The notes below the pieces were generated by a model that worked only from the letters and a program-made list of their open reading frames with translations, had not been told where the DNA came from and did no database searches. From assembly GCF_002854065.1 (NCBI RefSeq), contig NZ_CP024147.1: a stretch of 64,000 nucleotides of DNA; one strand, given 5' to 3'. This DNA comes from Escherichia coli (GTDB taxonomy: Bacteria; Pseudomonadota; Gammaproteobacteria; Enterobacterales; Enterobacteriaceae). Position numbers and translations under genes: made by a program. Below, piece after piece: positions 25,767-49,342 of this stretch; within the stretch, counting starts at the first letter, position 1, and each line of letters opens with the position of its first letter.

Positions 25767-27227
25767 TTATTCATCTTTCGGCGCAGAATGCTGGCGACCA
25801 AAAATCACCTCCATCCGCGCACCGCCCAGCATGCTCTCTCCGGCGACGATTTTACCCTCATATTGCTCGGTGATTTCGCGGGCTACCGCCAGCCCCACAC
25901 CTTGCCCAGGGCGTAAAGTATCAACCCGTTGACCACGGTCGAAAATGACCTCTCGCTTGCTTAATGGAATACCGGGTCCATCATCCTCGACCACAATATA
26001 GAGATGCTCGTCGGTTTGCCTTGCAGAAATTTCGACAAACTCGAGGCAATATTTACAGGCATTATCCAGCACATTGCCCATCACCTCGACAAAATCGTTC
26101 TGCTCACCGACAAAGCTGATCTCTGGCGAAATATCGAGAGAGATATTGACCCCTTTGCGTTGATACACTTTGTTCAGCGCCGAGGTGAGATTGTCCAGCA
26201 GTGGGGCGACCGGATGCAGCTCGCGGCTGAGCAATGTCCCGCCGCGCATACTGGCACGATGCAGGTAGTAGCCAATTTGCTGTGAAATGCGGCTGATTTG
26301 CTCCAGCATTACCGGTTCAGCATCACTGACGCTCATCTTTTCACTACGCAGAGAACGCAGCGTACTTTGCAGCACCGCCAGTGGCGTTTTCAGACTATGG
26401 GTCAGGTCGGTGAGCGTTGTACGGTATTTGTCGTAACGTTCGCGTTCGCTTTTTAACAATCGGTTCAGGTTTCGTACCAGACTGGTCAGTTCTCGCGTTG
26501 TGGCTGGATTGAGCAATTCGCGGTTATGTTCTTCCAGTTCGCGGACTTCTTTTGCCAGGGCTTCGATGGGGCGTAAACTCCACCAGGCGGCGACCCACAG
26601 CAGCGGGATCACTAACAGCAGATTGGCTGAGAGCACATAGATAAACCAGCTCCAGACCATATAGGAACTTTTTAGCTCCACCGGAATGGTATCCACCACC
26701 ACAATGGTTAACTTTGGCATCCGCGATGTTGCCGGGTAGACGTTTACCGCCACCGAGTGGGTCATCTCCGCGTCGTCATCATCTTCCCGCACTTCCTGCA
26801 ACTGTTGCTGTATCGAATGATCTCCACTCAGCAAGAGGCTGGTATCGTTAACATCCGCTTCAATTTCATGAAAACCATTCGATTTCAGCCAGTCAGGCTG
26901 GATCATCTTCATCAGCCAGGGCACGTCACGTTGCGCCCATAAAAGCTGCCCGTTCTCATCATAAATTAGCGTCATGGTGGGGCTTTGCTTGTCGATATTT
27001 TCGGGTAACTCGACATGCAACTTATTGTTTTCCCACTTCGCAAGGGTATAGAACAGATTGCTCTCGCCACGTAACAGCCGAAACGTAGTTTTATCGAAAC
27101 TGACGCTATAACCGATCAGCGCGACCATTCCGTAGGCAAGCGAAAGCACCAGTACTACCGCTGCCGTTGCCAACAGAAAACGTACCCGCAGCGAGAGCGG
27201 GAAAAAAAGACGCAGTAATTTTTTCAT
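25767..27227 (-). CDS. phoQ: sensor histidine kinase PhoQ
   Basis: 486-aa product with two TM segments, periplasmic sensor domain, H-box ([12 protein letters not shown]) and ATPase motifs. Confidence 0.95.
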
Positions 27228-27898
27228 CAGCGCAATTCGAACAGATAGCCCTGGCCGCGAACGGTGGTAATCACTTCTTGGGGATATTGTGCCTGAATTT
27301 TTTTGCGCAGACGTCCCATCAGTACATCAATGGTATGGCTTTCCCGCAGCTCCGCATCCGGATAGAGTTGGAGCATTAACGAATCTTTGCTCACCACTTT
27401 GCCATTATTGCGTATCAACGTTTCCATAATGGTGTATTCGAATGCGGTCAGTTTGATCACTTCGTCATTAATAGATAATTCACGGCGAGAGAGATCAACC
27501 TGAAACGGGGGGAGCGAAATGACCTGTGAAGCCAGGCCGCTATTACGCCGCATTAATGCCTGCATTCGCGCCATCACCTCTTCAATATGAAACGGTTTAG
27601 TCACGTAATCATCAGCACCGGCACTTAATACTTCGACTTTGTCCTGCCAGCTTTCACGGGCGGTTAATACCAGAATCGGCAGTGAAACATCATTGCTACG
27701 CCAGCGGCGAATCAGTGACAGACCGTCCTCGTCTGGCAATCCGAGATCGACAATCGCAATATCCGGTAAATGTTCATTGAGATAATAATCGGCTTCTTTG
27801 GCATCTTCTGCATCATCGACCTGATGACCAGCATCCTGAATCTGAACTTTAAGGTGGTGACGTAACAACGCATTGTCTTCAACAACCAGTACGCGCAT
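27227..27898 (-). CDS. phoP: response regulator PhoP
   Basis: 223-aa OmpR-family product [16 protein letters not shown]...; stop overlaps phoQ start. Confidence 0.95.
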
Positions 27899-27957
27899 TT
27901 TTATTTCTCCCTGTCTTAATTATTAAAATAGTGTAACGCGATTATGTGGTTATGGGG

Positions 27958-27975
27958 GTAAACATTAAATAAACC
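27958..27975 (-). promoter_or_regulatory. PhoP box (direct repeat GGTTTA-N5-TGTTTA) upstream of phoPQ
   Basis: Minus-strand reading GGTTTATTTAATGTTTAC about 60-77 nt upstream of the phoP start; matches the (T/G)GTTTA-N5-(T/G)GTTTA consensus. Confidence 0.65.
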
Positions 27976-28065
27976 AGCGGGGAGGGGAGGTAAAGTGAAA
28001 AAATAAAAAGCGGATAATCTTAATAAGCAGGCCGGACAGCATCGCCATCCGGCACTGATACGAGT

Positions 28066-29439
<1,374 letters not shown>

Positions 29440-34089: not shown

Positions 34090-35340
34090 ATGGAAAGTAA
34101 AGTAGTTGTTCCGGCACAAGGCAAGAAGATCACCCTGCAAAACGGCAAACTCAACGTTCCTGAAAATCCGATTATCCCTTACATTGAAGGTGATGGAATC
34201 GGTGTAGATGTAACCCCAGCCATGCTGAAAGTGGTCGACGCTGCAGTCGAGAAAGCCTATAAAGGTGAGCGTAAAATCTCCTGGATGGAAATTTACACCG
34301 GTGAAAAATCCACACAGGTTTATGGTCAGGACGTCTGGTTGCCTGCTGAAACTCTTGATCTGATTCGTGAATATCGCGTTGCTATTAAAGGCCCGCTGAC
34401 CACTCCGGTTGGTGGCGGTATTCGTTCTCTCAACGTTGCCCTGCGCCAGGAACTGGATCTCTACATCTGCCTGCGTCCGGTACGTTACTATCAGGGCACT
34501 CCAAGCCCGGTTAAACACCCTGAACTGACCGATATGGTTATCTTCCGTGAAAACTCGGAAGACATTTATGCGGGTATCGAATGGAAAGCTGACTCTGCCG
34601 ACGCCGAGAAAGTGATTAAATTCCTGCGTGAAGAGATGGGCGTGAAGAAAATTCGCTTCCCGGAACATTGCGGTATCGGTATTAAGCCGTGTTCTGAAGA
34701 AGGCACCAAACGTCTGGTTCGTGCAGCGATCGAATACGCAATTGCTAACGATCGTGACTCTGTGACCCTGGTGCACAAAGGCAACATCATGAAGTTCACC
34801 GAAGGCGCGTTTAAAGACTGGGGCTACCAGCTGGCGCGTGAAGAATTTGGCGGTGAACTGATCGACGGCGGCCCGTGGCTGAAAGTTAAAAACCCGAATA
34901 CCGGCAAAGAGATCGTCATTAAAGACGTGATTGCTGATGCATTCCTGCAACAGATCCTGCTGCGTCCGGCTGAATATGATGTTATCGCCTGTATGAACCT
35001 GAACGGTGACTACATTTCTGACGCCCTGGCAGCGCAGGTTGGCGGTATCGGTATCGCCCCTGGTGCAAACATCGGTGACGAATGCGCCCTGTTTGAAGCC
35101 ACCCACGGTACTGCGCCGAAATATGCCGGTCAGGACAAAGTAAACCCAGGCTCTATTATACTCTCTGCTGAGATGATGTTACGCCACATGGGTTGGACCG
35201 AAGCCGCAGACCTGATTGTTAAAGGTATGGAAGGCGCAATCAATGCGAAGACCGTAACCTATGACTTCGAACGTTTGATGGAAGGCGCTAAACTGCTGAA
35301 ATGTTCAGAGTTTGGTGATGCGATCATCAAGAATATGTAA
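34090..35340 (+). CDS. icd: isocitrate dehydrogenase (NADP)
   Basis: 416-aa product [38 protein letters not shown]...; preceded by GGAGAGG RBS. Confidence 0.97.
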
Positions 35341-35364
35341 TCACTACATGTGTTAAATATTTAA

Positions 35365-35396
35365 ACGGGCGTATAACACGCCCGTTGTTTTATTTA
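35365..35396 (+). terminator. rho-independent terminator of icd
   Basis: acgggcgt-ataac-acgcccgt hairpin (8-bp stem) followed by a T-rich run. Confidence 0.7.
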
Positions 35397-35442
35397 TGTA
35401 GATATTATTAATAGCATATCGAGCATATTTATATAAAACCCA

Positions 35443-35766
35443 TTACTTGAGCCCATACGGGCATATTTTTATAATACAACTCTTATGCAAACATTTATTT
35501 GTTATTTCGCTTTCTCCTGGAGGACACTCTTGACTGCTTTTGAGTAAACTCCATAAATTCTTGTTGAATGGTGCAATGTTATAAATAGTAATAGGATATT
35601 CTTTATCCTTAAGGATAATACCAGGCTTAACAGGTGTAAATATACTTCCAGGAGGAAGAAATATAGTAGATTGATACCAGATGATCATTTTCATATCACC
35701 CCATATGGCTGAAAAAGATATGCCGCATGTAGGTTGAATTACCGTGTCAATTACTACCCACTTCAT
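35443..35766 (-). CDS. iraM: anti-adaptor protein IraM (RpoS stabiliser)
   Basis: 107-aa product [32 protein letters not shown]... matching my recollection of IraM/YcgW; AT-rich context. Confidence 0.82.
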
Positions 35767-36461
35767 TTGTTATGTCTTATCCCACGGTATTTAATATAGT
35801 TCATTTGGATGTTCATTTCTTTATTTTGCATATGAGTATATTACCCCTTCAAAAAATAAATTAATTAAAACGATTGCTTATATAAAACAAAACTTAAAGC
35901 AAGGAATCTCAATGGATGTTAAACAAAATGAGATTTAGTGAAAACAATAAATTATTCACTTCGTTTTAGATTTGTTTAGCTATAATGTTATACATTCAAA
36001 TGACTGAACATCCTGTAATTAAAACATAGCCTTTATGCTACTTTGTGCCAATTTGCTAAACATTATGGTTGCCTTTTTATATAACGATAATAATGAATAT
36101 AAGCATGACATGAGAATAAGGTTTCAATTTTTGAGTTATATAGGAAAGGTTTAACCTGTTCCTGGCTAAAATACATATAACTGGATGATGACTAAACCAA
36201 AACACATGTGCGTTAAGTATTGAAACGGGCGTATGGCACGCCCGTTGGTTTTATAAATATATTAACCGTTATAAAATAACGTATAGAAAGTCAAGTGATC
36301 ACATTTCAAATATCAATTTGATAGTATTGGCCTGGTGATTATTTATGGGTAGCAATAAAAGGACAGTATTTATCATCCATAGGGATAGTCTCTGTACTTT
36401 TATTCCCATTATGCTAATGCCTTACTGAATTATGAAGCATTTCTTAAGCATCCAACTTAAG

Positions 36462-37868: not shown

Positions 37869-37904
37869 TACTTTGTACAATATACGCTAAAATTGTACAA
37901 AGTA
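37869..37904. promoter_or_regulatory. inverted repeat (13-bp arms) in bluR upstream region, candidate operator
   Basis: tactttgtacaat - 10 bp - attgtacaaagta, perfect 13-bp inverted repeat 50-85 bp upstream of the bluR start. Confidence 0.35.
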
Positions 37905-38022
37905 TAAATAAGATTTCAGCTAAATTGGATGAAACATTATTTTTAATGTGGATTAAATTAAAACATAACGTATTCATTTTCACGATGATTTCCAGAAAAC
38001 TTGCAAAATAATGTGCTGAAAA

Positions 38023-39234
38023 TTATTTTTTCTCCGGCCACGCAACTGAAGGGATACCATTCAATTTAGCTTTAGCAAACAGATCCCCCTGAAACATCTC
38101 AATTCCTGCGGATTCAAGCCACATCCACTCTTCTGGTGTTGCCACGCCCATAGCACTGACTTGAATTTCAAGTGATGTACAGCATTTTATGATCGCCTGA
38201 ATAATTGCCTGCCGTGGTCCGCTTTTATGAACATTGGTAATCAATTCCTGACTGATTTTAATTCTGTCAGGCTGGAAGCGTGACAGGAGTAACAAACCAG
38301 CAAAACCTGCGCCAAAATGATCAATTGCTACACTGATACCGGCAGCCTTTAGCGATTTAACCGCTTCGGCAAACTCATCAAACCGAGATATGACTTCACT
38401 TTCAGTAAATTCAACGATGATTTGTTCAGGCACCAGACCATTGGCCTTTATTTCATCAAGTAAAAAAGAGACTGCGTCAGGCTCGTTAACCAGGGTCATA
38501 GGTAATAGATTGATAGATATCATTTTATCACCGAGCTCAAGTGCGTGTGCCATCGCGAATACAAGCGCCTTACTTTTGAGATCCGCTGTGTAGATTTCCC
38601 CGTCTTTACGCTGCCCAACCGCTATAGCTGACGGGCTGTCTTCATTTTTTTGCACAATGGCTTCAAAAGCGATTATCCGCCGCGATAAGGGATCAACAAT
38701 AGGATGAAAGGCAAAGTGGTCGTTTATATTTGGTGAAAGGGTACAGGAATCAAGTTCTTTATCAGATCTGTCAGCGATAAAAAGCCAGGAGTCTTCAGCA
38801 GGGATCTCGAAATAGGTTGATTGTTCGGTTGCAAGGACAAAAGTACGAAAAAATTGTAGCGCTCTGTCATCATAAGTTAGCTGAAATTTTGATGTGCCTT
38901 TGTCGAATACGGCCTGTAAAACGTCATCTCGCTCGTGCAGGCGTAAATCAAATAATTCCATTCCTGCTTTACCAAAACGGCGAGCAGGCGCGTAATCGCA
39001 CAACAGTTCAACAATATTATAGTGCCGAGGATCCTGGCATATAGCCCGATATATCATTTGAACCTGTTCTTCCGGACCTTCCAGAAGCTGGAAAAAATGA
39101 GAACCATTAAACAGTAAGATCCCTGTTACGTCAGACTGCATGTTCCTGCGATTTGCTATCGAAACCATTTCTTCGATTTTTTTGACAGGTTCGTCGTCAC
39201 GTATATGGCTACGATAAATAAGGGTGGTAAGCAT
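38023..39234 (-). CDS. bluF: blue-light sensor BluF (BLUF plus degenerate EAL domain; YcgF)
   Basis: 403-aa product from MLTTLIYRSHIRDD...; BLUF N-terminus and EAL-like C-terminus. Confidence 0.9.
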   Translation of the reverse strand: MLTTLIYRSHIRDDEPVKKIEEMVSIANRRNMQSDVTGILLFNGSHFFQLLEGPEEQVQMIYRAICQDPRHYNIVELLCDYAPARRFGKAGMELFDLRLHERDDVLQAVFDKGTSKFQLTYDDRALQFFRTFVLATEQSTYFEIPAEDSWLFIADRSDKELDSCTLSPNINDHFAFHPIVDPLSRRIIAFEAIVQKNEDSPSAIAVGQRKDGEIYTADLKSKALVFAMAHALELGDKMISINLLPMTLVNEPDAVSFLLDEIKANGLVPEQIIVEFTESEVISRFDEFAEAVKSLKAAGISVAIDHFGAGFAGLLLLSRFQPDRIKISQELITNVHKSGPRQAIIQAIIKCCTSLEIQVSAMGVATPEEWMWLESAGIEMFQGDLFAKAKLNGIPSVAWPEKK

Positions 39235-39547
39235 TAACTGTCCAGGGTAATGGGAGAGGCGAGAGTAAGACGGTAACAGACATATCTTCCGGTGTCTTTC
39301 TTTTAATACCAAAACATAACTGTTTCTTTACATTGATAAAAAATGGAAAAAGTTGAACACGAGTTGGCGAAAAATCTTGTATAGGTTGTCAGTTAAATGA
39401 TGCAATATGTTTTATCATAACGTATTGTTTTATATGCATTAGCACTAATTGCAAAAAATTAATTTATCATTCTGTACACATATTTCGTACAAGTTTGCTA
39501 TTGTTACCTCACTTAACATTGATTAACATTTTTAACAGAGGCGTAGC

Positions 39548-39784
39548 ATGCATCAAAATTCAGTGACTTTAGATTCTGCGGGAGCAATCACTCGTTACTT
39601 TGCAAAAGCTAACTTGCCTACTCAGCAGGAAACTCTCGGGGAAATTGTGACTGAGATTTTGAAAGATGGACGTAATCTGAGTCGAAAGTCGCTTTGTGCC
39701 AAACTTCTTTGCCGACTGGAACAAGCGACAGGGGAAGAGGAACAGAAACATTATAATGCACTAATTGGGTTGCTTTTTGAATAA
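39548..39784 (+). CDS. ycgZ: small protein YcgZ (connector of two-component signalling)
   Basis: 78-aa ORF with good RBS, divergent from bluF. Confidence 0.85.
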   Translation: MHQNSVTLDSAGAITRYFAKANLPTQQETLGEIVTEILKDGRNLSRKSLCAKLLCRLEQATGEEEQKHYNALIGLLFE

Positions 39785-39813
39785 TGCAACAGCCTGATTA
39801 TTTGGATTTGCCC

Positions 39814-40719
39814 CTATATTTCCAGACATCTGTTATCACTTAACCCATTACAAGCCCGCTGCCGCAGATATTCCCGTGGCGAGCGATAACCCAGCGCACT
39901 ATGCGGATGCCATTCGTTATAATGCTCGAACGCCTCTGCAAGGTTCTTTGCTGCCGTTAACCCGTCTGGTTTGGGCATGATACTGATGTAGTCACGCTTT
40001 ATCGTTTTCACGAAGCTCTCTGCTATTCCGTTACTCTCCGGACTCCGCACCGCCGTGTTCTTCGGTTCAAGTCCCAACATCCGGGCGAACTGGCGTGTTT
40101 CATTAGCCCGGTAGCATGAACCATTATCCGTCAGCCACTCCACTGGAGACGACGGAAGATCGTTGCCGAAGCGGCGTTCCACCGCTCCCAGCATGACGTC
40201 CTGTACTGTTTCACTGTTGAAGCCGCCGGTAGTGACCGCCCAGTGCAGTGCCTCACGATCACAGCAGTCCAGCGCGAACGTGACACGCAGTCTCTCTCCG
40301 TTATCACAGCAGAACTCGAACCCGTCAGAGCACCATCGCTGATTGCTTTCTTTCACGGCCACTCTGCCTGTATGTGCCCGTTTCGATGGCGGTACAGCAG
40401 GTTTTCGCTCAAGCAACAGCGCATTCTAGCGCATGATCCGGTAAACACGTTTGGCATTGATCGCAGGCATACCATCAAGTTCTGCCTGTCTGCGAAGCAG
40501 CGCCCATACCCGACGATAACCATACGTGGGCAGCTCTCCGATAACATGGTGTATACGGAGAAGCACATCCGTATCATCAGTGTGACGACTGCGGCGGCCA
40601 TCCATCCAGTCATCGGTTCGTCTGAGAATGACGTGCAACTGCGCACGCGACACCCGGAGACAACGGCTGACTAAGCTTACTCCCCATCCCCGGGCAATAA
40701 GGGCGCGTGCGCTATCCAC
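39814..40719 (-). pseudogene. insD: IS2 transposase OrfB (InsD) interrupted by in-frame TAG at codon 98
   Basis: Frame [12 protein letters not shown]...AKRVYRIMR / TAG (rc of plus 40426-40428) / [20 protein letters not shown]...; canonical IS2 has Gln at this position as I recall. Confidence 0.75.
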
Positions 40720-41042
40720 TTTTTTGCCCGTCCATATTCAACGGCTTCTTTGAGGAGTTCATTTTCCATCGTTTTCTTGCCGAGCAGGCGCTGGAGTTCT
40801 TTAATCTGCTTCATGGCGGCAGCAAGTTCAGAGGCAGGAACAACCTGTTCTCCGGCGGCGACAGCAGTAAGACTTCCTTCCTGGTATTGCTTACGCCAGA
40901 GAAATAACTGGCTGGCTGCTACACCATGTTGCCGGGCAACGAGGGAGACCGTCATCCCCGGTTCAAAGCTCTGCTGAACAATTGCGATCTTTTCCTGTGT
41001 GGTACGCCGTCTGCGTTTCTCCGGCCCTAAGACATCAATCAT
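40677..41042 (-). CDS. insC: IS2 transposase OrfA (InsC)
   Basis: 121-aa product [34 protein letters not shown]... Confidence 0.9.
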
Positions 41043-41162
41043 CTGTTCTCCAATGACTAGTCTAAAAACTAGTATTAAGACTATCACTTATTTAAGTGAT
41101 ATTGGTTGTCTGGAGATTCAGGGGGCCAGTCTATTATTTAACAGGTTAGCTATGAAGTCGTT

Positions 41163-41435
41163 ATGAAGACATCTGATAATGAAAGTATAAAATATGAAAT
41201 TACTGGCCAGGCGGTGCTCCAGATACTGCGCATGAAGATAAATTTTTCGGTGCAGACTCTTATTAAGCAATTACTCGTAATGAAATCGGCTGAGGAAAAT
41301 GCTTTCCGACGAGATTTAATTGACAGCATAATTCGTGATTTTAGCAACAGTGATACAGGAGGGCCAAACCGAAGAACAGCGATAGCTGACAATAAAAGTA
41401 TGTTCAATGGTAAGAAAATAAACAGAATACATTAA
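41163..41435 (+). CDS. ymgA: small protein YmgA (connector/biofilm-related)
   Basis: 90-aa ORF, first gene after the IS2. Confidence 0.82.
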   Translation: MKTSDNESIKYEITGQAVLQILRMKINFSVQTLIKQLLVMKSAEENAFRRDLIDSIIRDFSNSDTGGPNRRTAIADNKSMFNGKKINRIH

Positions 41436-41463
41436 AATTTCATAAGTAAGATGAGAGGTTACC

Positions 41464-41730
41464 ATGCTTGAAGATACTACAATTCATAATGCAATAACTG
41501 ATAAAGCGTTATCAAGTTACTTTCGCAGTTCGGGTAATTTGTTAGAAGAAGAGTCAGCAGTGTTAGGGCAGGCTGTGACTAATTTAATGCTTTCAGGCGA
41601 TAATGTTAATAATAAAAATATTATCTTAAGTCTGATACACTCCCTGGAAACAACAAGTGATATTCTCAAAGCTGACGTGATCAGAAAAACACTGGAAATC
41701 GTGTTGCGATACACAGCGGATGACATGTAA
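41464..41730 (+). CDS. ariR: AriR (YmgB), regulator of acid resistance/biofilm
   Basis: 88-aa ORF with GAGAGG RBS. Confidence 0.85.
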
Positions 41731-41842
41731 CTTTTAATTATTAAGTATAAGTTTATAGAAAACTCATTCATCTTATTTTTGTCTGTCGCTTTAGACTATA
41801 CACAGCATAATTTTATTGGGTTAATATTTCTACGAGGCTGAC

Positions 41843-42091
41843 ATGAATAATTCAATCCCAGAGAGATTTATTTTTCAATGTGCTTTGTTTAAAAATCTCG
41901 AGAGGGAGGTATTCATGACGCATGGGTATGTTGATAGTCATATTATTGATCAGGCTTTACGCTTGCGTTTAAAAGATGAAACCAGTGTGATTCTTTCTGA
42001 TCTCTATCTGCAAATCTTGCAGTACATTGAAATGCATAAGACTACACTAACGGATATCATTATTAATGACAGGGAATCCGTGCTCTCTTAG
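41843..42091 (+). CDS. ymgC: small protein YmgC
   Basis: 82-aa ORF, TAG stop. Confidence 0.78.
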   Translation: MNNSIPERFIFQCALFKNLEREVFMTHGYVDSHIIDQALRLRLKDETSVILSDLYLQILQYIEMHKTTLTDIIINDRESVLS

Positions 42092-42426
42092 AACTTGAGT
42101 AAGGTTATAGAATAAACATCAGCTGTATCATCATGCTGGTGCAAAGTGAGCATTTCAGGCGTTATGCTTTCTTAATATATCCGCAATATCAGGGGGCAAA
42201 CAGGAATGGAGAGCGCTCGTTTTCCATTCTTGACGCCTGATATCCCACCTAATTTGTTTAATTCTGCCTACATTGTGCTCAATAATTAATAGGTTAGATG
42301 AAGATGGAGAAAATTTTATCTTCGGCGTGGATATTTCTTATGCTCTCTACCATGCTCTCTGTAGACGCCAGCGCGAGCGAATGAACGTCATTTTCATGTA
42401 TTAAACCCTTTGTTCGGGACAAGCGA

Positions 42427-43950
42427 ATGCGCAATACACTCATACCCATCCTCGTTGCGATATGCTTGTTTATAACCGGTGTCGCTATTTTGAACATCCA
42501 GCTCTGGTATTCCGCAAAAGCAGAGTACCTGGCGGGAGCAAGATATGCCGCCAACAATATCAATCATATACTTGAAGAAGCGTCACAGGCGACTCAAACA
42601 GCGGTTAACATTGCCGGGAAGGAATGCGACCTCGAGGAGCAATATCAGCTTGGCACTGAAGCAGCTCTGAAACCTCACCTGCGCACAATCATCATTCTCA
42701 AACAGGGTACGGTCTGGTGTACATCCTTACCGGGGAATCGGGTCCTGCTGTCTCGTATTCCTGTTTTCCCGGACAGTAATTTACTGTTGGCTCCGGCAAT
42801 CGACACCGTTAATCGATTACCTATCCTGCTCTATCAGAGCCAATTTGCAGATACGCGCATTTTGGTTACGATAAGTGATCAGCATATTCGCGGGGCGCTT
42901 AATGTACCCTTGAAAGGGGTAAGGTATGTATTACGCGTGGCGGATGACATTATTGGACCTACGGGTGATGTGATAACGCTTAATGGACATTATCCCTATA
43001 CCGAGAAGGTTCACTCCACAAAATATCATTTCACTATTATCTTTAACTCGCCGCCACTCTTTAGCTTCTACAGACTTATCGATAAAGGCTTTGGGATTTT
43101 GATCTTTATTCTGTTAATCGCCTGCGCCGCTGCCTTCCTGCTAGATAGGTATTTCAATAAAAGCGCAACGCCTGAAGAGATCCTGCGGCGGGCTATAAAT
43201 AATGGGGAGATCGTCCCTTTTTACCAACCAGTGGTGAATGGTCGGGAAGGGACATTGCGGGGAGTTGAGGTGTTAGCCCGCTGGAAACAACCTCACGGTG
43301 GATATATTTCACCCGCGGCATTTATTCCACTTGCTGAAAAATCCGGATTAATCGTTCCGCTTACGCAAAGCCTGATGAATCAGGTTGCCAGACAGATGAA
43401 CGCTATCGCGAGTAAATTGCCGGAAGGTTTTCATATTGGAATTAATTTTAGCGCCTCGCATATTATTTCGCCGACGTTTGTCGACGAGTGCTTAAATTAC
43501 CGTGACAGTTTTACCCGCCGCGATTTAAACCTCGTTCTGGAAGTTACCGAGCGTGAGCCATTAAATGTTGATGAAAGTCTGGTTCAGCGGTTGAACATTC
43601 TGCATGAAAATGGTTTTGTCATCGCGCTGGATGATTTCGGTACTGGCTACTCAGGGCTTTCTTTTCTGCATGACCTGCATATTGATTATATCAAAATTGA
43701 TCACAGTTTCGTTGGCCGCGTAAACGCAGACCCAGAATCAACTCGGATTCTGGATTGTGTATTGGATCTGGCGCGTAAACTTTCGATCAGTATCGTCGCT
43801 GAAGGTGTCGAAACCAAAGAACAACTTGACTATCTGAACCAAAATAATATCACATTTCAGCAGGGTTATTATTTCTATAAACCTGTTACATACATCGACC
43901 TGGTCAAAATTATCCTTTCTAAACCGAAGGTGAAGGTTGTGGTTGAGTGA
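42427..43950 (+). CDS. pdeG: c-di-GMP phosphodiesterase-family protein PdeG (YcgG), CSS-motif plus EAL domain
   Basis: 507-aa product with N-terminal TM, periplasmic domain, second TM and C-terminal EAL domain. Confidence 0.87.
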   Translation: MRNTLIPILVAICLFITGVAILNIQLWYSAKAEYLAGARYAANNINHILEEASQATQTAVNIAGKECDLEEQYQLGTEAALKPHLRTIIILKQGTVWCTSLPGNRVLLSRIPVFPDSNLLLAPAIDTVNRLPILLYQSQFADTRILVTISDQHIRGALNVPLKGVRYVLRVADDIIGPTGDVITLNGHYPYTEKVHSTKYHFTIIFNSPPLFSFYRLIDKGFGILIFILLIACAAAFLLDRYFNKSATPEEILRRAINNGEIVPFYQPVVNGREGTLRGVEVLARWKQPHGGYISPAAFIPLAEKSGLIVPLTQSLMNQVARQMNAIASKLPEGFHIGINFSASHIISPTFVDECLNYRDSFTRRDLNLVLEVTEREPLNVDESLVQRLNILHENGFVIALDDFGTGYSGLSFLHDLHIDYIKIDHSFVGRVNADPESTRILDCVLDLARKLSISIVAEGVETKEQLDYLNQNNITFQQGYYFYKPVTYIDLVKIILSKPKVKVVVE

Positions 43951-44081
43951 AAATCGATCACTAAGGCCATGATGCGGTGTAATTATAGACAGCTAATTAG
44001 CTCGTTGCCTCTTGTTACTATTGTTCATTATTTTGTTTGCTATAATTGTTTGAAAGTTTTGACAGGATTGCCATTAGTAGC

Positions 44082-44300
44082 ATGAACAATAGTAATAATC
44101 TGGATTATTTCACTCTCTATATCATCTTTTCCATTGCATTTATGCTGATCACTCTCCTGGTCATCCTTATTGCAAAACCCAGTACCGGGCTGGGAGAAGT
44201 GCTTGTGACGATAAATTTGCTTAATGCCCTTGTTTGGCTGGCGATCAATCTGGTTAATCGATTAAGGGAAAGACTCGTCAGCCACAGGGATCAGCAATAA
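44082..44300 (+). CDS. ymgF: small inner membrane protein YmgF
   Basis: 72-aa product MNNSNNLDYFTLYIIFSIAFMLITLLVILIA... with two hydrophobic helices. Confidence 0.75.
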   Translation: MNNSNNLDYFTLYIIFSIAFMLITLLVILIAKPSTGLGEVLVTINLLNALVWLAINLVNRLRERLVSHRDQQ

Positions 44301-44699
44301 TCTTTCAGTTTCTCACTGTCAGCATGCGGCTGAATGGGGTGCTGACAGTGAACGCCTGGATCATTGAAGGAAAGGAATTATTGCGCAAATAGTTGTCAAC
44401 CCTGGTGTTATCACAGTTGTTTTTATATATCATTGAAATAATTTCTATGGCAACTATCAATGATTGTGATGTCGAAGAGTTATTTGTTAAACAAAATCGT
44501 CACCTCAAAGTGATCAATGTCATGAAAATAAGGTGAAAAATAATAATGCCGACTTATTTATCATTTATATATTGTTGCTGTTTATCTATTTAAATTTCTT
44601 GTGCTTTTGTTTTTGTCTTTACCCTCCGTTTTGGTAATCTGAACTCATAGGTTATTTGACCAGGAATGTTTGTTAATCCAATGAATGGATGGTTAATCT

Positions 44700-47363
44700 A
44701 TGAAACTGAAAAAACTCCCCGGGTTTAGTTTAGGACTTATTGCTCTGGCGGTGGGTAATGCATATGCAACACAATTGTTGGATGATTATAGTATAATTTC
44801 CTATATAACCGATGAAGAATCGCCGATTCAAATCAAAGATAATACTTTGAAAAGTAATGAAGAATATCTAACCACTGAAGACGAAAGCCATGCTGTGAAA
44901 GTGGATGACGGTGTAACTGGATATATAAATAATGCCAGTGTGATGACTAGTGGTGATGGATCTTATGGTATTTCTGTTGATAGTCAAAACAAAGTATTAT
45001 ATATAAGCGATAGCGATATTAAGACCTCTGGAAGCGTATCTAACAAAGAAAATAACCAAGATGTTAATGGAGGGATAACAGCCAGCGCAGTAGTCAGTGA
45101 ATTTGGTGGCACCATCGTTATGAATGGTGATAATTTAGTCGAGACGGGGGGGGCATATTCAGCGGGACTTTTAAGTCAGGTTAATGATTCTGGAAATGTG
45201 GAAAATAACACTCGTCTTGAAACCACAGATAAAACGATCATTGTTACCTCTGGGGAAAATGCAGTAGGTGTTCTTGCATGTTCAAGACCTGGAGAGTCTC
45301 GAACATGTGTCGATGCTGTAGATGATGAAGTTAGTGATTCTAACAGTTACGAAGTTATTAGCCGTGCTGATTTAAAAATGAATGGTGGTTCCATAACAAC
45401 TAATGGCATTAATAGCTATGGTGCTTATGCTAATGGGAAAAAAGCATATATTAATTTAGATTATGTGGCACTTGAAACTGTGGCTGATGGAAGTTATGCA
45501 GTTGCTATTCGACAAGGTAACATTGATATAAAAAATAGTTCTATTACAACAACAGGCACTAAAGCCCCCATTGCAAAAATATACAATGGTGGAGAGTTAT
45601 TTTTTTCCAATGTCACCGCGGTATCAGTAAAAGATAAAGGAATATCAATTGATGCATCAAATATCGATTCTCATGCCAAAATAGCACTATCAAGTGTTGA
45701 ACTTTCAAGTGCTTTGGATAGTATTGATGTTAACAAAACTACAACGAATTTAAGCATCCTTAATCGAAGTATTATCACGCCTGGTAATAATATTCTGGTT
45801 AATAATACTGGGGGTGACTTAAACATAATTTCGTCCAACTCTACTCTAAATGGAGCGACTAAACTCGTTAGCGGCACAACCACGCTGAAGCTTTCAGAAA
45901 ACACAATCTGGAATATGAAAGATGACTCCGTTGTTACCCATCTGACTAATTCAGACAGTATTATCAATCTTTCGTATGATGATGGTCAAACATTTACCCA
46001 GGGAAAAACGTTAACCGTAAAAGGTAATTATGTCGGTAATAATGGTCAGCTTAATATCCGCACTGTATTAGGTGATGATAAATCAGCTACGGATAGACTT
46101 ATTGTGGAGGGTAATACTTCGGGTTCAACTACCGTCTATGTGAAAAATGCTGGAGGAAGCGGCGCGGCCACGCTAAATGGGATCGAACTCATAACTGTGA
46201 ATGGCGATGAATCTCCAGCAGATGCCTTCAGACAAGGTGATGCAAGGATTGCAGCTGGAGCTTTCGAATATCAACTAAAACAACAAGGCAAAAACTGGTA
46301 TTTGACAAGTTATCAGTCAGTGAATGAGGAGGATAACAGCTCAGAGGGAAATTCAGAATCAACAGAAACGCCCACCCCCGTCCTGCGCCCCGAAGCTGGA
46401 AGTTACGTCGCCAACCTGGCAGCCGCTAACACTCTTTTTGTTATGCGTCTGAATGACCGTGCAGGTGAAACGCGCTACATCGATCCTGTAACTGAACAGG
46501 AGCGTTCAAGCCGACTTTGGCTACGTCAAATTGGCGGGCATAATGCCTGGCGTGACAGCAACGGACAGTTGAGAACGACCTCGCATCGCTACGTCTCGCA
46601 GTTAGGGGCCGATCTGTTAACCGGTGGTTTTACCGACAGTGACAGTTGGCGTTTGGGAGTGATGGCTGGTTATGCCCGCGACTACAACTCAACTCATTCC
46701 AGCGTGTCGGATTATCGTTCGAAAGGGAGTGTCAGAGGCTATAGCGCAGGGCTGTATGCCACCTGGTTTGCCGATGACATCAGTAAAAAAGGCGCATACA
46801 TTGACGCCTGGGCGCAATATAGCTGGTTTAAAAACTCGGTGAAAGGGGATGAATTAGCCTATGAATCCTATAGCGCGAAAGGCGCAACCGTCTCGCTGGA
46901 AGCGGGTTACGGCTTTGCCCTGAATAAATCCTTTGGTCTGGAAGCGGCGAAATATACGTGGATCTTCCAGCCACAGGCACAGGCTATCTGGATGGGCGTC
47001 GATCATAATGCGCACACCGAAGCCAATGGCTCACGTATTGAGAATGACGCAAATAACAACATCCAGACCCGACTTGGTTTCCGCACTTTTATTCGTACTC
47101 AGGAGAAAAACAGCGGTCCGCACGGTGACGACTTTGAACCTTTTGTTGAAATGAACTGGATCCATAACAGTAAAGATTTTGCTGTCTCAATGAACGGCGT
47201 GAAAGTCGAACAAGACGGGGCGCGTAATTTGGGGGAAATTAAACTTGGCGTAAATGGCAATCTGAATCCGGCGGCCAGCGTCTGGGGTAATGTGGGCGTG
47301 CAGCTGGGTGATAATGGCTACAATGACACCGCAGTGATGGTGGGCCTGAAATATAAGTTCTGA
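44700..47363 (+). CDS. ycgH: autotransporter (type Va) adhesin-like protein YcgH, full-length ORF
   Basis: 887-aa ORF: signal peptide MKLKKLPGFSLGLIALAVGNAYA, Ser/Thr/Gly/Asn-rich passenger, C-terminal beta-barrel ending ...VGLKYKF. Confidence 0.85.
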   Translation: MKLKKLPGFSLGLIALAVGNAYATQLLDDYSIISYITDEESPIQIKDNTLKSNEEYLTTEDESHAVKVDDGVTGYINNASVMTSGDGSYGISVDSQNKVLYISDSDIKTSGSVSNKENNQDVNGGITASAVVSEFGGTIVMNGDNLVETGGAYSAGLLSQVNDSGNVENNTRLETTDKTIIVTSGENAVGVLACSRPGESRTCVDAVDDEVSDSNSYEVISRADLKMNGGSITTNGINSYGAYANGKKAYINLDYVALETVADGSYAVAIRQGNIDIKNSSITTTGTKAPIAKIYNGGELFFSNVTAVSVKDKGISIDASNIDSHAKIALSSVELSSALDSIDVNKTTTNLSILNRSIITPGNNILVNNTGGDLNIISSNSTLNGATKLVSGTTTLKLSENTIWNMKDDSVVTHLTNSDSIINLSYDDGQTFTQGKTLTVKGNYVGNNGQLNIRTVLGDDKSATDRLIVEGNTSGSTTVYVKNAGGSGAATLNGIELITVNGDESPADAFRQGDARIAAGAFEYQLKQQGKNWYLTSYQSVNEEDNSSEGNSESTETPTPVLRPEAGSYVANLAAANTLFVMRLNDRAGETRYIDPVTEQERSSRLWLRQIGGHNAWRDSNGQLRTTSHRYVSQLGADLLTGGFTDSDSWRLGVMAGYARDYNSTHSSVSDYRSKGSVRGYSAGLYATWFADDISKKGAYIDAWAQYSWFKNSVKGDELAYESYSAKGATVSLEAGYGFALNKSFGLEAAKYTWIFQPQAQAIWMGVDHNAHTEANGSRIENDANNNIQTRLGFRTFIRTQEKNSGPHGDDFEPFVEMNWIHNSKDFAVSMNGVKVEQDGARNLGEIKLGVNGNLNPAASVWGNVGVQLGDNGYNDTAVMVGLKYKF

Positions 47364-47380
47364 TCCCCGTTAGCTAAAAT

Positions 47381-47405
47381 ACCGCGTCGAATTCATCGAC
47401 GCGGT
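47381..47405. terminator. bidirectional hairpin terminator between ycgH and ymgD
   Basis: accgcgtcga-attca-tcgacgcggt perfect 10-bp stem. Confidence 0.6.
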
Positions 47406-47418
47406 AACATATGAAATA

Positions 47419-47748
47419 TTATTTTTTGCCGATAGCACGCATGGTGTCATCAATTGCCGTGATCAACAGCATTTGCGGGTCTTTAGCGCAAACCTGATTC
47501 AGTTTTTCTACCACTTTGGCGCTCAGTTCCGGAGATTGCTCAATTTTTAAATCACGGCTGGCAACGCTGGCATTACCCATTACCGCAACAATTTCTGCAA
47601 CCTGTGCGCTGTCAGTTTTTGCCATTTCGTTGGCTTCTGCGCAAGTAATATAGGTTTCTGACGGCAAACCGTTTTTAATATTGTAGTCCTGCGCCCAGGT
47701 CATTGGTGCGAAAACAAACAGGCCCGCCAGTAAAGCAAATTTTTTCAT
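47419..47748 (-). CDS. ymgD: periplasmic protein YmgD
   Basis: about 109-aa secreted ORF (signal peptide ...PMTWA). Confidence 0.8.
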   Translation of the reverse strand: MKKFALLAGLFVFAPMTWAQDYNIKNGLPSETYITCAEANEMAKTDSAQVAEIVAVMGNASVASRDLKIEQSPELSAKVVEKLNQVCAKDPQMLLITAIDDTMRAIGKK

Positions 47749-47757
47749 CATCATTCC

Positions 47758-48102
47758 TTATTTCATTTTACCCAGAATTGCACCACCCGTACCGCCAATC
47801 ACGGCACCTTTAATCGCCCCTTCGAGGCCATTGCCGGTCAGAACGCCAGTGACAGCACCAACGGCGGCACCCACTTTTGCACCTTTACGTGCATTTTTAC
47901 CGTCGCGGCCTTTTTCTGTTACTGCACCAACACCAGCGCCAACAGCTGCACCTTTCAGTACGCCATTAACACCATTGCCAGTAAGTAATCCAACGCCTGC
48001 GCCTAGCAATGCACCTTTCGTGGTGCGGTTCATATCCGCCATCGCTGGCGTGGAGCAGAACAATGCTGAGATAAGCCCGAAGGCAAGTATTTTTTTCTTC
48101 AA
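47758..48102 (-). CDS. ymgG: glycine-zipper protein YmgG
   Basis: 114-aa Gly/Ala/Val-rich secreted ORF immediately downstream of ymgD. Confidence 0.8.
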
Positions 48103-48578
48103 CTTAGATGTCCGGTATTAAGTAAGTTGCACACACAATAATTTCGTCTTCAATTAAGATCTGCTTAACTAAAGAACGCTCGCTATTATTCAGATAATTC
48201 AAAATGAGCGTGGCTGTGATGATAGGAATTATGTTTTTTACGTGAATGAGAATAATCTTAAATGAGGAATAACTCATTGATTGACAATATTTTTATTCAA
48301 GAAGTGTCATTGACTGTTAACGCAATGTTGTAATGGTAAGATAATCTGATTTATCAATATTATTGTGTGATTTTTATGTGAGCAGAAGATATTCATCAGC
48401 AACGATTACATTAGTCATTTTATTTTGCCGACGGCCTCATTGTCGAAAGATAAGCGTACGACAGTATTATCTGAAAAGAGTGATTTTTTATCCAACCACA
48501 CTTCAGCGCACTGCGTTTAAAAAATGCCTCTTTCTTATGCGGGATATCATCATTTCATCATGATGTCTTTGGTGAGCG

Positions 48579-49022
48579 GTGAACACAATACACCTGCGCT
48601 GTCTCTTCAGGATGAATCCCCTGGTCTGGTGCCTGCGGGCTGATGTTGCAGCCGAGCTAAGGTCACTTAGACGCTACTATCATTTATCCAATGGCATGGA
48701 ATCGAAATCAGTCGATACCCGCAGTATATATCGTGAACTGGGTGCAACGCTGAGTTACAACATGCGTCTGGGGAACTGTATGGAAGTTGAGCCGTGGCTG
48801 AAGGCGGCTGTGCGCAAAGAATTTGTCGATGATAACCGGGTGAAAGTGAATAATGACGGTAATTTCGTCAATGATTTGTCGGGCAGACGTGGAATATACC
48901 AGGCAGGTATTAAAGCCTCATTCAGCAGTACGTTAAGCGGGCATCTCGGGGTGGGGTATAGCAACGGTGCCGATGTGGAATCCCCGTGGAACGCGGTGGC
49001 TGGTGTGAACTGGTCATTCTGA
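48579..49022 (+). pseudogene. ycgI: autotransporter beta-domain C-terminal remnant (ycgI-like)
   Basis: 147-codon frame lacking ATG and signal sequence, ending in typical autotransporter barrel terminus ...AVAGVNWSF. Confidence 0.6.
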
Positions 49023-49342
49023 CCATCAACGATTAAACTGCACTTCGGCACAGTTTTCGTTTACAGGATGTTAAAAGAGAAAATTCTGGGGTAAAAAAAG
49101 CCCGCCAGTTACGGCGGGAAACCTCATCCTATGGGAGAACAATGAATAATGAATAATGAAATTGCGGGGTTATCATCTCCCAGTATATCCATACCAACAA
49201 TAAGGTTATTTACTCAACCAGGCATAAACATTTTTTTTTGTGCGTGGGAACATCCTTAAGGTGTAAAGGGGGAGGTGGAAATAGCAATGAGGAGTATCAG
49301 CAAGAATACTCGCCGCTTTACCACAACGTGGATGAGAGGGAT

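Follow-up and report, generated by a model that had tools for sequence, protein, structure and literature searches.

A conserved PhoP box in the autoregulated phoPQ promoter of an Escherichia coli genome, with a counterpart of a prophage attachment site in the promoter core

The window analyzed here is a 64,000-nucleotide stretch of the Escherichia coli contig NZ_CP024147.1 (assembly GCF_002854065.1), in which the genes pepT, roxA, phoQ, phoP, purB, hflD, mnmA, nudJ, rluE, icd, and iraM follow one another in this order. The purB stop codon lies at 28066 and a spacer of 167 bp (40% G+C) separates it from phoP. The stop codon is directly followed by a terminator-like hairpin, detected by pattern scan and folding (-20.3 kcal/mol and z = -4.1 for 28020-28066 on the minus strand), which would shield phoPQ from purB read-through, so that the operon would need its own promoter. 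An Rfam scan of 27000-29000 returned no match at E ≤ 1. The features of the locus are as follows:

25767-27227, minus strand: phoQ (open reading frame; annotated in RefSeq on E. coli DNA that is 100% identical)
27227-27898, minus strand: phoP (same basis; ATG at 27898)
25767-27898, minus strand: phoPQ operon driven by the promoter
27907-27912, minus strand: Shine-Dalgarno sequence AGGGAG of phoP (read directly)
27934, minus strand: predicted transcription start, approximately 7 nt past the -10 hexamer, which implies a leader of about 36 nt (placed from the -10 position)
27941-27946, minus strand: -10 hexamer CATAAT of the PhoP-activated promoter P1 (5/6 match to TATAAT, exactly 12 nt from the box)
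27947-27958, minus strand: 12-nt gap CCCCCATAACCA between the box and the -10 hexamer (read directly)
27959-27975, minus strand: PhoP box GGTTTA-TTTAA-TGTTTA, GGTTTATTTAATGTTTA, 17 nt (read directly, exact (T/G)GTTTA-N5-(T/G)GTTTA)
27975-27970, minus strand: half-site 1, GGTTTA
27969-27965, minus strand: spacer of the box, TTTAA
27964-27959, minus strand: half-site 2, TGTTTA
28031-28053, minus strand: terminator-like hairpin after the purB stop codon

The minus strand reads ...ccccgcT GGTTTA TTTAA TGTTTA Cccccataacca CATAAT cgcgtta...; a longer reading has cccccataacca between TGTTTA and CATAAT and continues to cgcgttacac.... A preliminary description of this DNA had assigned the repeat to 27958-27975; the box is indeed present there, but this range takes in one extra base, the C after the box, and the true extent is 27959-27975, a trivial offset. 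The claimed fit to the (T/G)GTTTA-N5-(T/G)GTTTA consensus on the minus strand is exact, and when both strands of the 64 kb were searched with the exact consensus KGTTTANNNNNKGTTTA the phoP box was the single match, where 0.01 would be expected by chance; any exact match at all appeared in only 1 of 100 dinucleotide shuffles. If up to two mismatches are allowed, the window holds 31 matches against 17.5 expected, and these fall largely in AT-rich stretches.

Two position weight matrices (PWMs) were applied, the broader of them built from 25 Salmonella activation boxes of 23 promoters (PMC3335776 Table 1) with phoP excluded. The phoP box scored 14.1 bits with this broad matrix and ranked fifth of approximately 128,000 positions (leave-one-out median of the training sites, 13.9 bits), and it scored 15.9 bits and ranked fourth with a 12-site “S1” matrix (leave-one-out median, 14.5), which bears out the earlier expectation that a PWM scan would recover it. 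The second-best site in the purB-phoP spacer reached 1.1 bits with the broad matrix, i.e., the spacer contains no second box, and local shuffles of the spacer equaled the score of the phoP box with the “S1” matrix in 4 of 2,000 cases. Across the whole window, an equally high-scoring site was present somewhere in 28-64% of shuffles with both matrices, and the PWM score alone is not significant at the scale of 64 kb. Because the matrix by itself does not discriminate window-wide, the significance of the site rests on the exact consensus, its location, and the promoter geometry. Near-consensus matches cluster in the AT-rich stretches 35880-36160 and 37900-49300; 4 of the top 21 PWM matches lie upstream of iraM and others at 38720, 43153, 45729, and 49057, a clustering that is probably explained for the most part by local base composition. 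The often-quoted PhoP matrix is thus too degenerate for site calls made on score only, even in 64 kb, and geometry and conservation decide.

With respect to geometry, the box has the same, direct orientation as phoP, its end lies 60 nt upstream of the phoP ATG, and among the 33 window sites with at least 10.5 bits it is the best-scoring one that has a 5/6 -10 hexamer 11-13 nt downstream. The site does stand at the distance from phoP that had been anticipated. In the published classification, architecture I has one direct box that overlaps the -35 position and lies 12 nt away from the -10 hexamer; class II activation is predicted for it, and a PhoP box works only in the right orientation and at the right distance (PMC3335776). 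The phoP site has a single direct box, lies over the -35 position, and is 12 nt from CATAAT, where 11-12 nt are required. A sigma70 consensus scan found no -35/-10 pair of consensus quality in 27700-28300, and the constitutive promoter P2 was thus not located by that scan; the absence of a consensus -35 element fits an activator-dependent promoter.

The same promoter has been studied in close relatives. When aligned from the purB stop codon to the first codons of phoP, the sequence is identical to phoPQ P1 of E. coli K-12 MG1655 in box, gap, -10 hexamer, leader, and start codon, and differs only by a 1-bp deletion immediately behind the purB stop codon and some 90 nt before the box. For the K-12 promoter, the PhoP box goes back to Kato, Tanabe and Utsumi 1999, as cited in PMC8355897, PMC5775216, and PMC3750022, and the last of these, again citing Kato 1999, attributes to E. 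coli phoPQ one PhoP-P-activated and one constitutive promoter. For Shigella flexneri phoP an identical 19-mer, tGGTTTAtttaaTGTTTAc, is given, the promoter fragment was shifted by PhoP-P in EMSA, a pphoP::lacZ reporter was made, and autoregulation was reported (PMC5775216). The Salmonella enterica phoP promoter shares GGTTTA and TGTTTA in direct orientation, the 12 nt to CATAAT, and a single box over the -35 position, whereas its box spacer is TTAAC rather than TTTAA and its 12-nt gap and leader differ at several positions (PMC3335776); the Salmonella leader measures 34 nt (PMC3335776 Table 1), and deletion of the Salmonella box caused a low-Mg2+ growth defect equal to that of a phoP mutant (PMC2650801). 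Yersinia pestis phoP also shows positive autoregulation through a PhoP box, via the y1795 promoter (PMC2650801), although there the box lies upstream of the preceding gene, while here it is promoter-proximal to phoP. More distantly, class II activation in the OmpR/PhoB family, as by PhoB at pho boxes, likewise uses a tandem direct repeat in place of the -35 element and a winged-helix dimer bound head to tail (PMC3335776), but half-site sequence and spacing are different, and for PhoP the sigma contact is only predicted.

The box is also strongly conserved. No interruption of the 401-nt stretch comprising the end of purB, the promoter, and the start of phoP is seen in 5,424 of the 5,426 complete E. 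coli genomes, and the 17-nt box is unchanged in four sampled E. coli variants and in representatives of four other Escherichia species, with substitutions only around it. For a wider comparison, loci of 80 Enterobacteriaceae species were gathered by the PhoP protein alone and compared with anchored, ungapped methods; a MAFFT alignment was blurred by misalignment and by prophage-bearing loci. A box was present 50-75 nt from the phoP ATG in 58 of the 80 species. Among these, half-site 2 is TGTTTA in 55 and half-site 1 is GGTTTA in 40, while 23 different spacers occur. The information per position averages 1.78 bits for the half-sites, against 0.78 for the spacer and 0.51 for the flank upstream. 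The distance from box to -10 hexamer is 12 nt in 54 of the 58 species and 11 nt in the other 4, and the hexamer is CATAAT in 49. Conserved half-sites, a free spacer, and a fixed position are the sequence footprint expected of a site bound by a dimer. The remaining 22 species have no box at the usual position, mostly because of prophage integration (see below), so not all genomes retain a proximal box at precisely this position.

Two further variants were noted. E. coli P276M (locus L083) carries a natural 9-bp deletion, aligned to window positions 27950-27958, which brings an intact box to 3 nt from the -10 hexamer rather than 12 nt; given the published distance dependence, P1 should be disabled in this strain. 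In Pseudocitrobacter (L058, L061, and L064) another gene lies upstream, and just a TGTTTA half-site is present, close to a TAGTATAAC motif.

On the basis of sequence, uniqueness, geometry, identity with the K-12 promoter, and the phylogenetic footprint, the repeat is almost certainly the PhoP box that belongs to P1, the PhoP-activated promoter of phoPQ. Its earlier reading as an autoregulation site is supported by the near-identity to the MG1655 promoter, the identical Shigella 19-mer (PMC5775216), the architecture I geometry, and the promoter pair reported in PMC3750022; binding of PhoP-P and PhoP-dependent, Mg2+-responsive transcription are taken from published work (PMC5775216; PMC3750022; PMC2650801). 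The box is real, conserved, and an already known textbook site, and nothing in the data contradicts this.

Two other explanations were weighed, and one of them draws on the antisense RNA AsphoP, whose position was transferred from MG1655 (1190165-1190508) without indels between the sequences:

27616-27959, plus strand: antisense RNA AsphoP

The repeat could be a chance match without function in an AT-rich intergenic spacer. A spacer of 40% G+C, the 31 window matches with at most two mismatches, and the 28-64% of whole-window shuffles in which degenerate matrices score equally well would all be compatible with this, but the exact consensus is expected only 0.01 times, local shuffles reach the score in just 4 of 2,000 cases, the geometry to the -10 hexamer is exact, and binding has been published for the identical sequence. 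Above all, half-sites that are conserved around a free spacer in 58 species effectively refute a fortuitous origin, and we give it a negligible probability. It is also very improbable that the repeat mainly serves another role, either as part of the constitutive promoter P2 or as a PhoP-P roadblock that sets the 3' end of AsphoP. The former would draw on the TTTAAT inside the box, a 5/6 match to a -10 hexamer, and on the reported existence of P2 (PMC3750022), but no spaced -35/-10 pair was detected in 27700-28300. The latter would draw on the annotated AsphoP 3' end, 1190508, which maps to 27959, the last base of the box; yet the AsphoP ends are approximate, having been mapped by RNA-seq in an rnc mutant, and the AsphoP promoter is not conserved outside E. 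coli (PMC9600491), whereas the box is conserved family-wide. As an observation in its own right, AsphoP starts 282 nt inside phoP, and the edge of the PhoP box nearer the promoter is where its 3' end has been mapped.

If the repeat is the PhoP box of P1, low Mg2+, antimicrobial peptides, acid pH, or osmotic upshift would be sensed by PhoQ and lead to the phosphorylation of PhoP, and a PhoP-P dimer would then bind both GTTTA half-sites head to tail. With the box in the place of the -35 element and 12 nt from CATAAT, PhoP-P would substitute for -35 recognition and recruit RNA polymerase by class II activation, most likely via region 4 of sigma70, a contact predicted in PMC3335776; we infer this contact and the exact start site. 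Transcription of phoPQ would thereby be raised, i.e., positive autoregulation on top of a basal, PhoP-independent supply from P2. For this window, the presence of the box confirms that the strain has the standard phoPQ control region, with its textbook positive-feedback cis-element.

In sister genera the promoter has an additional association. Directly upstream of phoP, 16 of the 22 boxless species among the 80 carry a tyrosine integrase of 429 aa or its remnants (loci L008, L012, L017, L018, L020, L021, L024, L029, L031, L033, L040, L041, L050, L053, L054, and L070; also the related loci L090-L095 and L124/L192). The integrase has Arm-DNA-bind_2 and Phage_integrase domains and belongs to a Rac-like lambdoid prophage found in Citrobacter, Enterobacter, and Lelliottia. 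A small DUF1233 protein, possibly an excisionase, is encoded just upstream of int, and the element further encodes RecE, sometimes RecT, YdaS/YdaT, and a cI-like repressor, and also terminase, portal, capsid, and tail proteins. A close relative of the integrase was absent from the phage collection searched, the best match being 52% identical and the Rac integrase IntR approximately 50%. A metagenome contig with the integrase ends inside the tail genes, before the far end of the prophage.

The attachment core was derived from IMG/VR contigs, one of which holds both ends of the element. On this contig attL reads GGTTTAcgaaaTGTTTA tccccgccgcaa CATAATCAGCGTTAAACTA followed by phage DNA, and attR reads from the end of int, ...gttatttaatttcagggcgctggtttcaagtta CATAATCAGCGTTAAACTA, into ttctga... 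and the ATG of phoP. The core common to attL and attR measures 19-20 bp, and the att core aCATAATCAGCGTTAAACTA therefore corresponds to the -10 hexamer and start-site region of phoP P1. Ten additional viral contigs likewise represent attL ends, and 44 of 46 integrase-side junctions read CATAATCAGCGTTAAACTA and then phoP. After integration, purB keeps beside it the PhoP box and an entire -10 and start-site region, which at attL face into the prophage, while at attR phoP adjoins the 3' end of int in place of the box. The corresponding site of the window is unoccupied:

27929-27947, minus strand: aCATAATC-GCGTTACACTA, the E. coli counterpart of the core aCATAATCAGCGTTAAACTA

One indel and one substitution separate it from the core, and at most 2 of the 5,426 complete E. 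coli genomes could have the site occupied. Our literature search found no paper on a prophage at phoP or purB. At the level of sequence, the P1 core is the counterpart of the bacterial attachment site of this prophage family, and we give about even chances that lysogeny would abolish or rewire proximal PhoP autoregulation and put genes at the prophage end under PhoP control. If true, lysogeny would be connected with how a system associated with virulence and polymyxin resistance is controlled.

Several observations accompany these loci. At the attL end, the prophages begin with different genes (454-1134 in L185 and 14053-14403 in L192), and the displaced PhoP promoter has no constant cargo; judged by eye only, the gene in L192 resembles a UmuD/LexA-type peptidase, and it is convergent with P1. 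In Citrobacter amalonaticus S646 (L014) and Intestinirhabdus alba (L068) the box, the -10 hexamer, and the core are kept, and approximately 125-150 nt of extra sequence before phoP, which looks like a decayed insertion, gives a longer leader.

The second PhoP-related gene of the window is iraM (35443-35766, minus strand; ATG at 35766). The preliminary description had also named it a PhoP target, which is a fair statement given its reported PhoQ-dependent induction of approximately 20-fold (PMC5740661), and had been unable to locate its box confidently in 35767-36200. A box is indeed not obvious there, and the PWM scan offers two candidates:

35909-35925, minus strand: candidate iraM box TGTTTA-ACATC-CATTGA, direct orientation, 143-159 nt upstream of the iraM ATG and 12 nt upstream of TAAGTT
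35962-35978, plus strand: candidate iraM box CGTTTT-AGATT-TGTTTA, reverse orientation, 196-212 nt upstream of the iraM ATG

The minus-strand candidate scores 13.3 bits and ranks sixth with the broad matrix. Local shuffles scored with the “S1” matrix reach its value in 559 of 2,000 cases, and scores upstream of iraM are inflated because the region has only 30% G+C. In five divergent E. coli sequences its half-sites are kept or improved (CATTGA to TATTGA), its spacer varies, and TAAGTT becomes TAAATT. The plus-strand candidate ranks third to fourth, local shuffles reach its score in 24 of 2,000 cases, and it is invariant in five aligned divergent E. coli sequences. Both are candidates only, and they provide two concrete targets for mutation. 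In this window iraM directly follows icd (35340-35443), so there is no e14 prophage at the 3' end of icd, unlike in K-12. The region upstream of iraM occurs in 3,932 of the 5,426 E. coli genomes at 90% to 100% identity and is far more variable than the phoP promoter.
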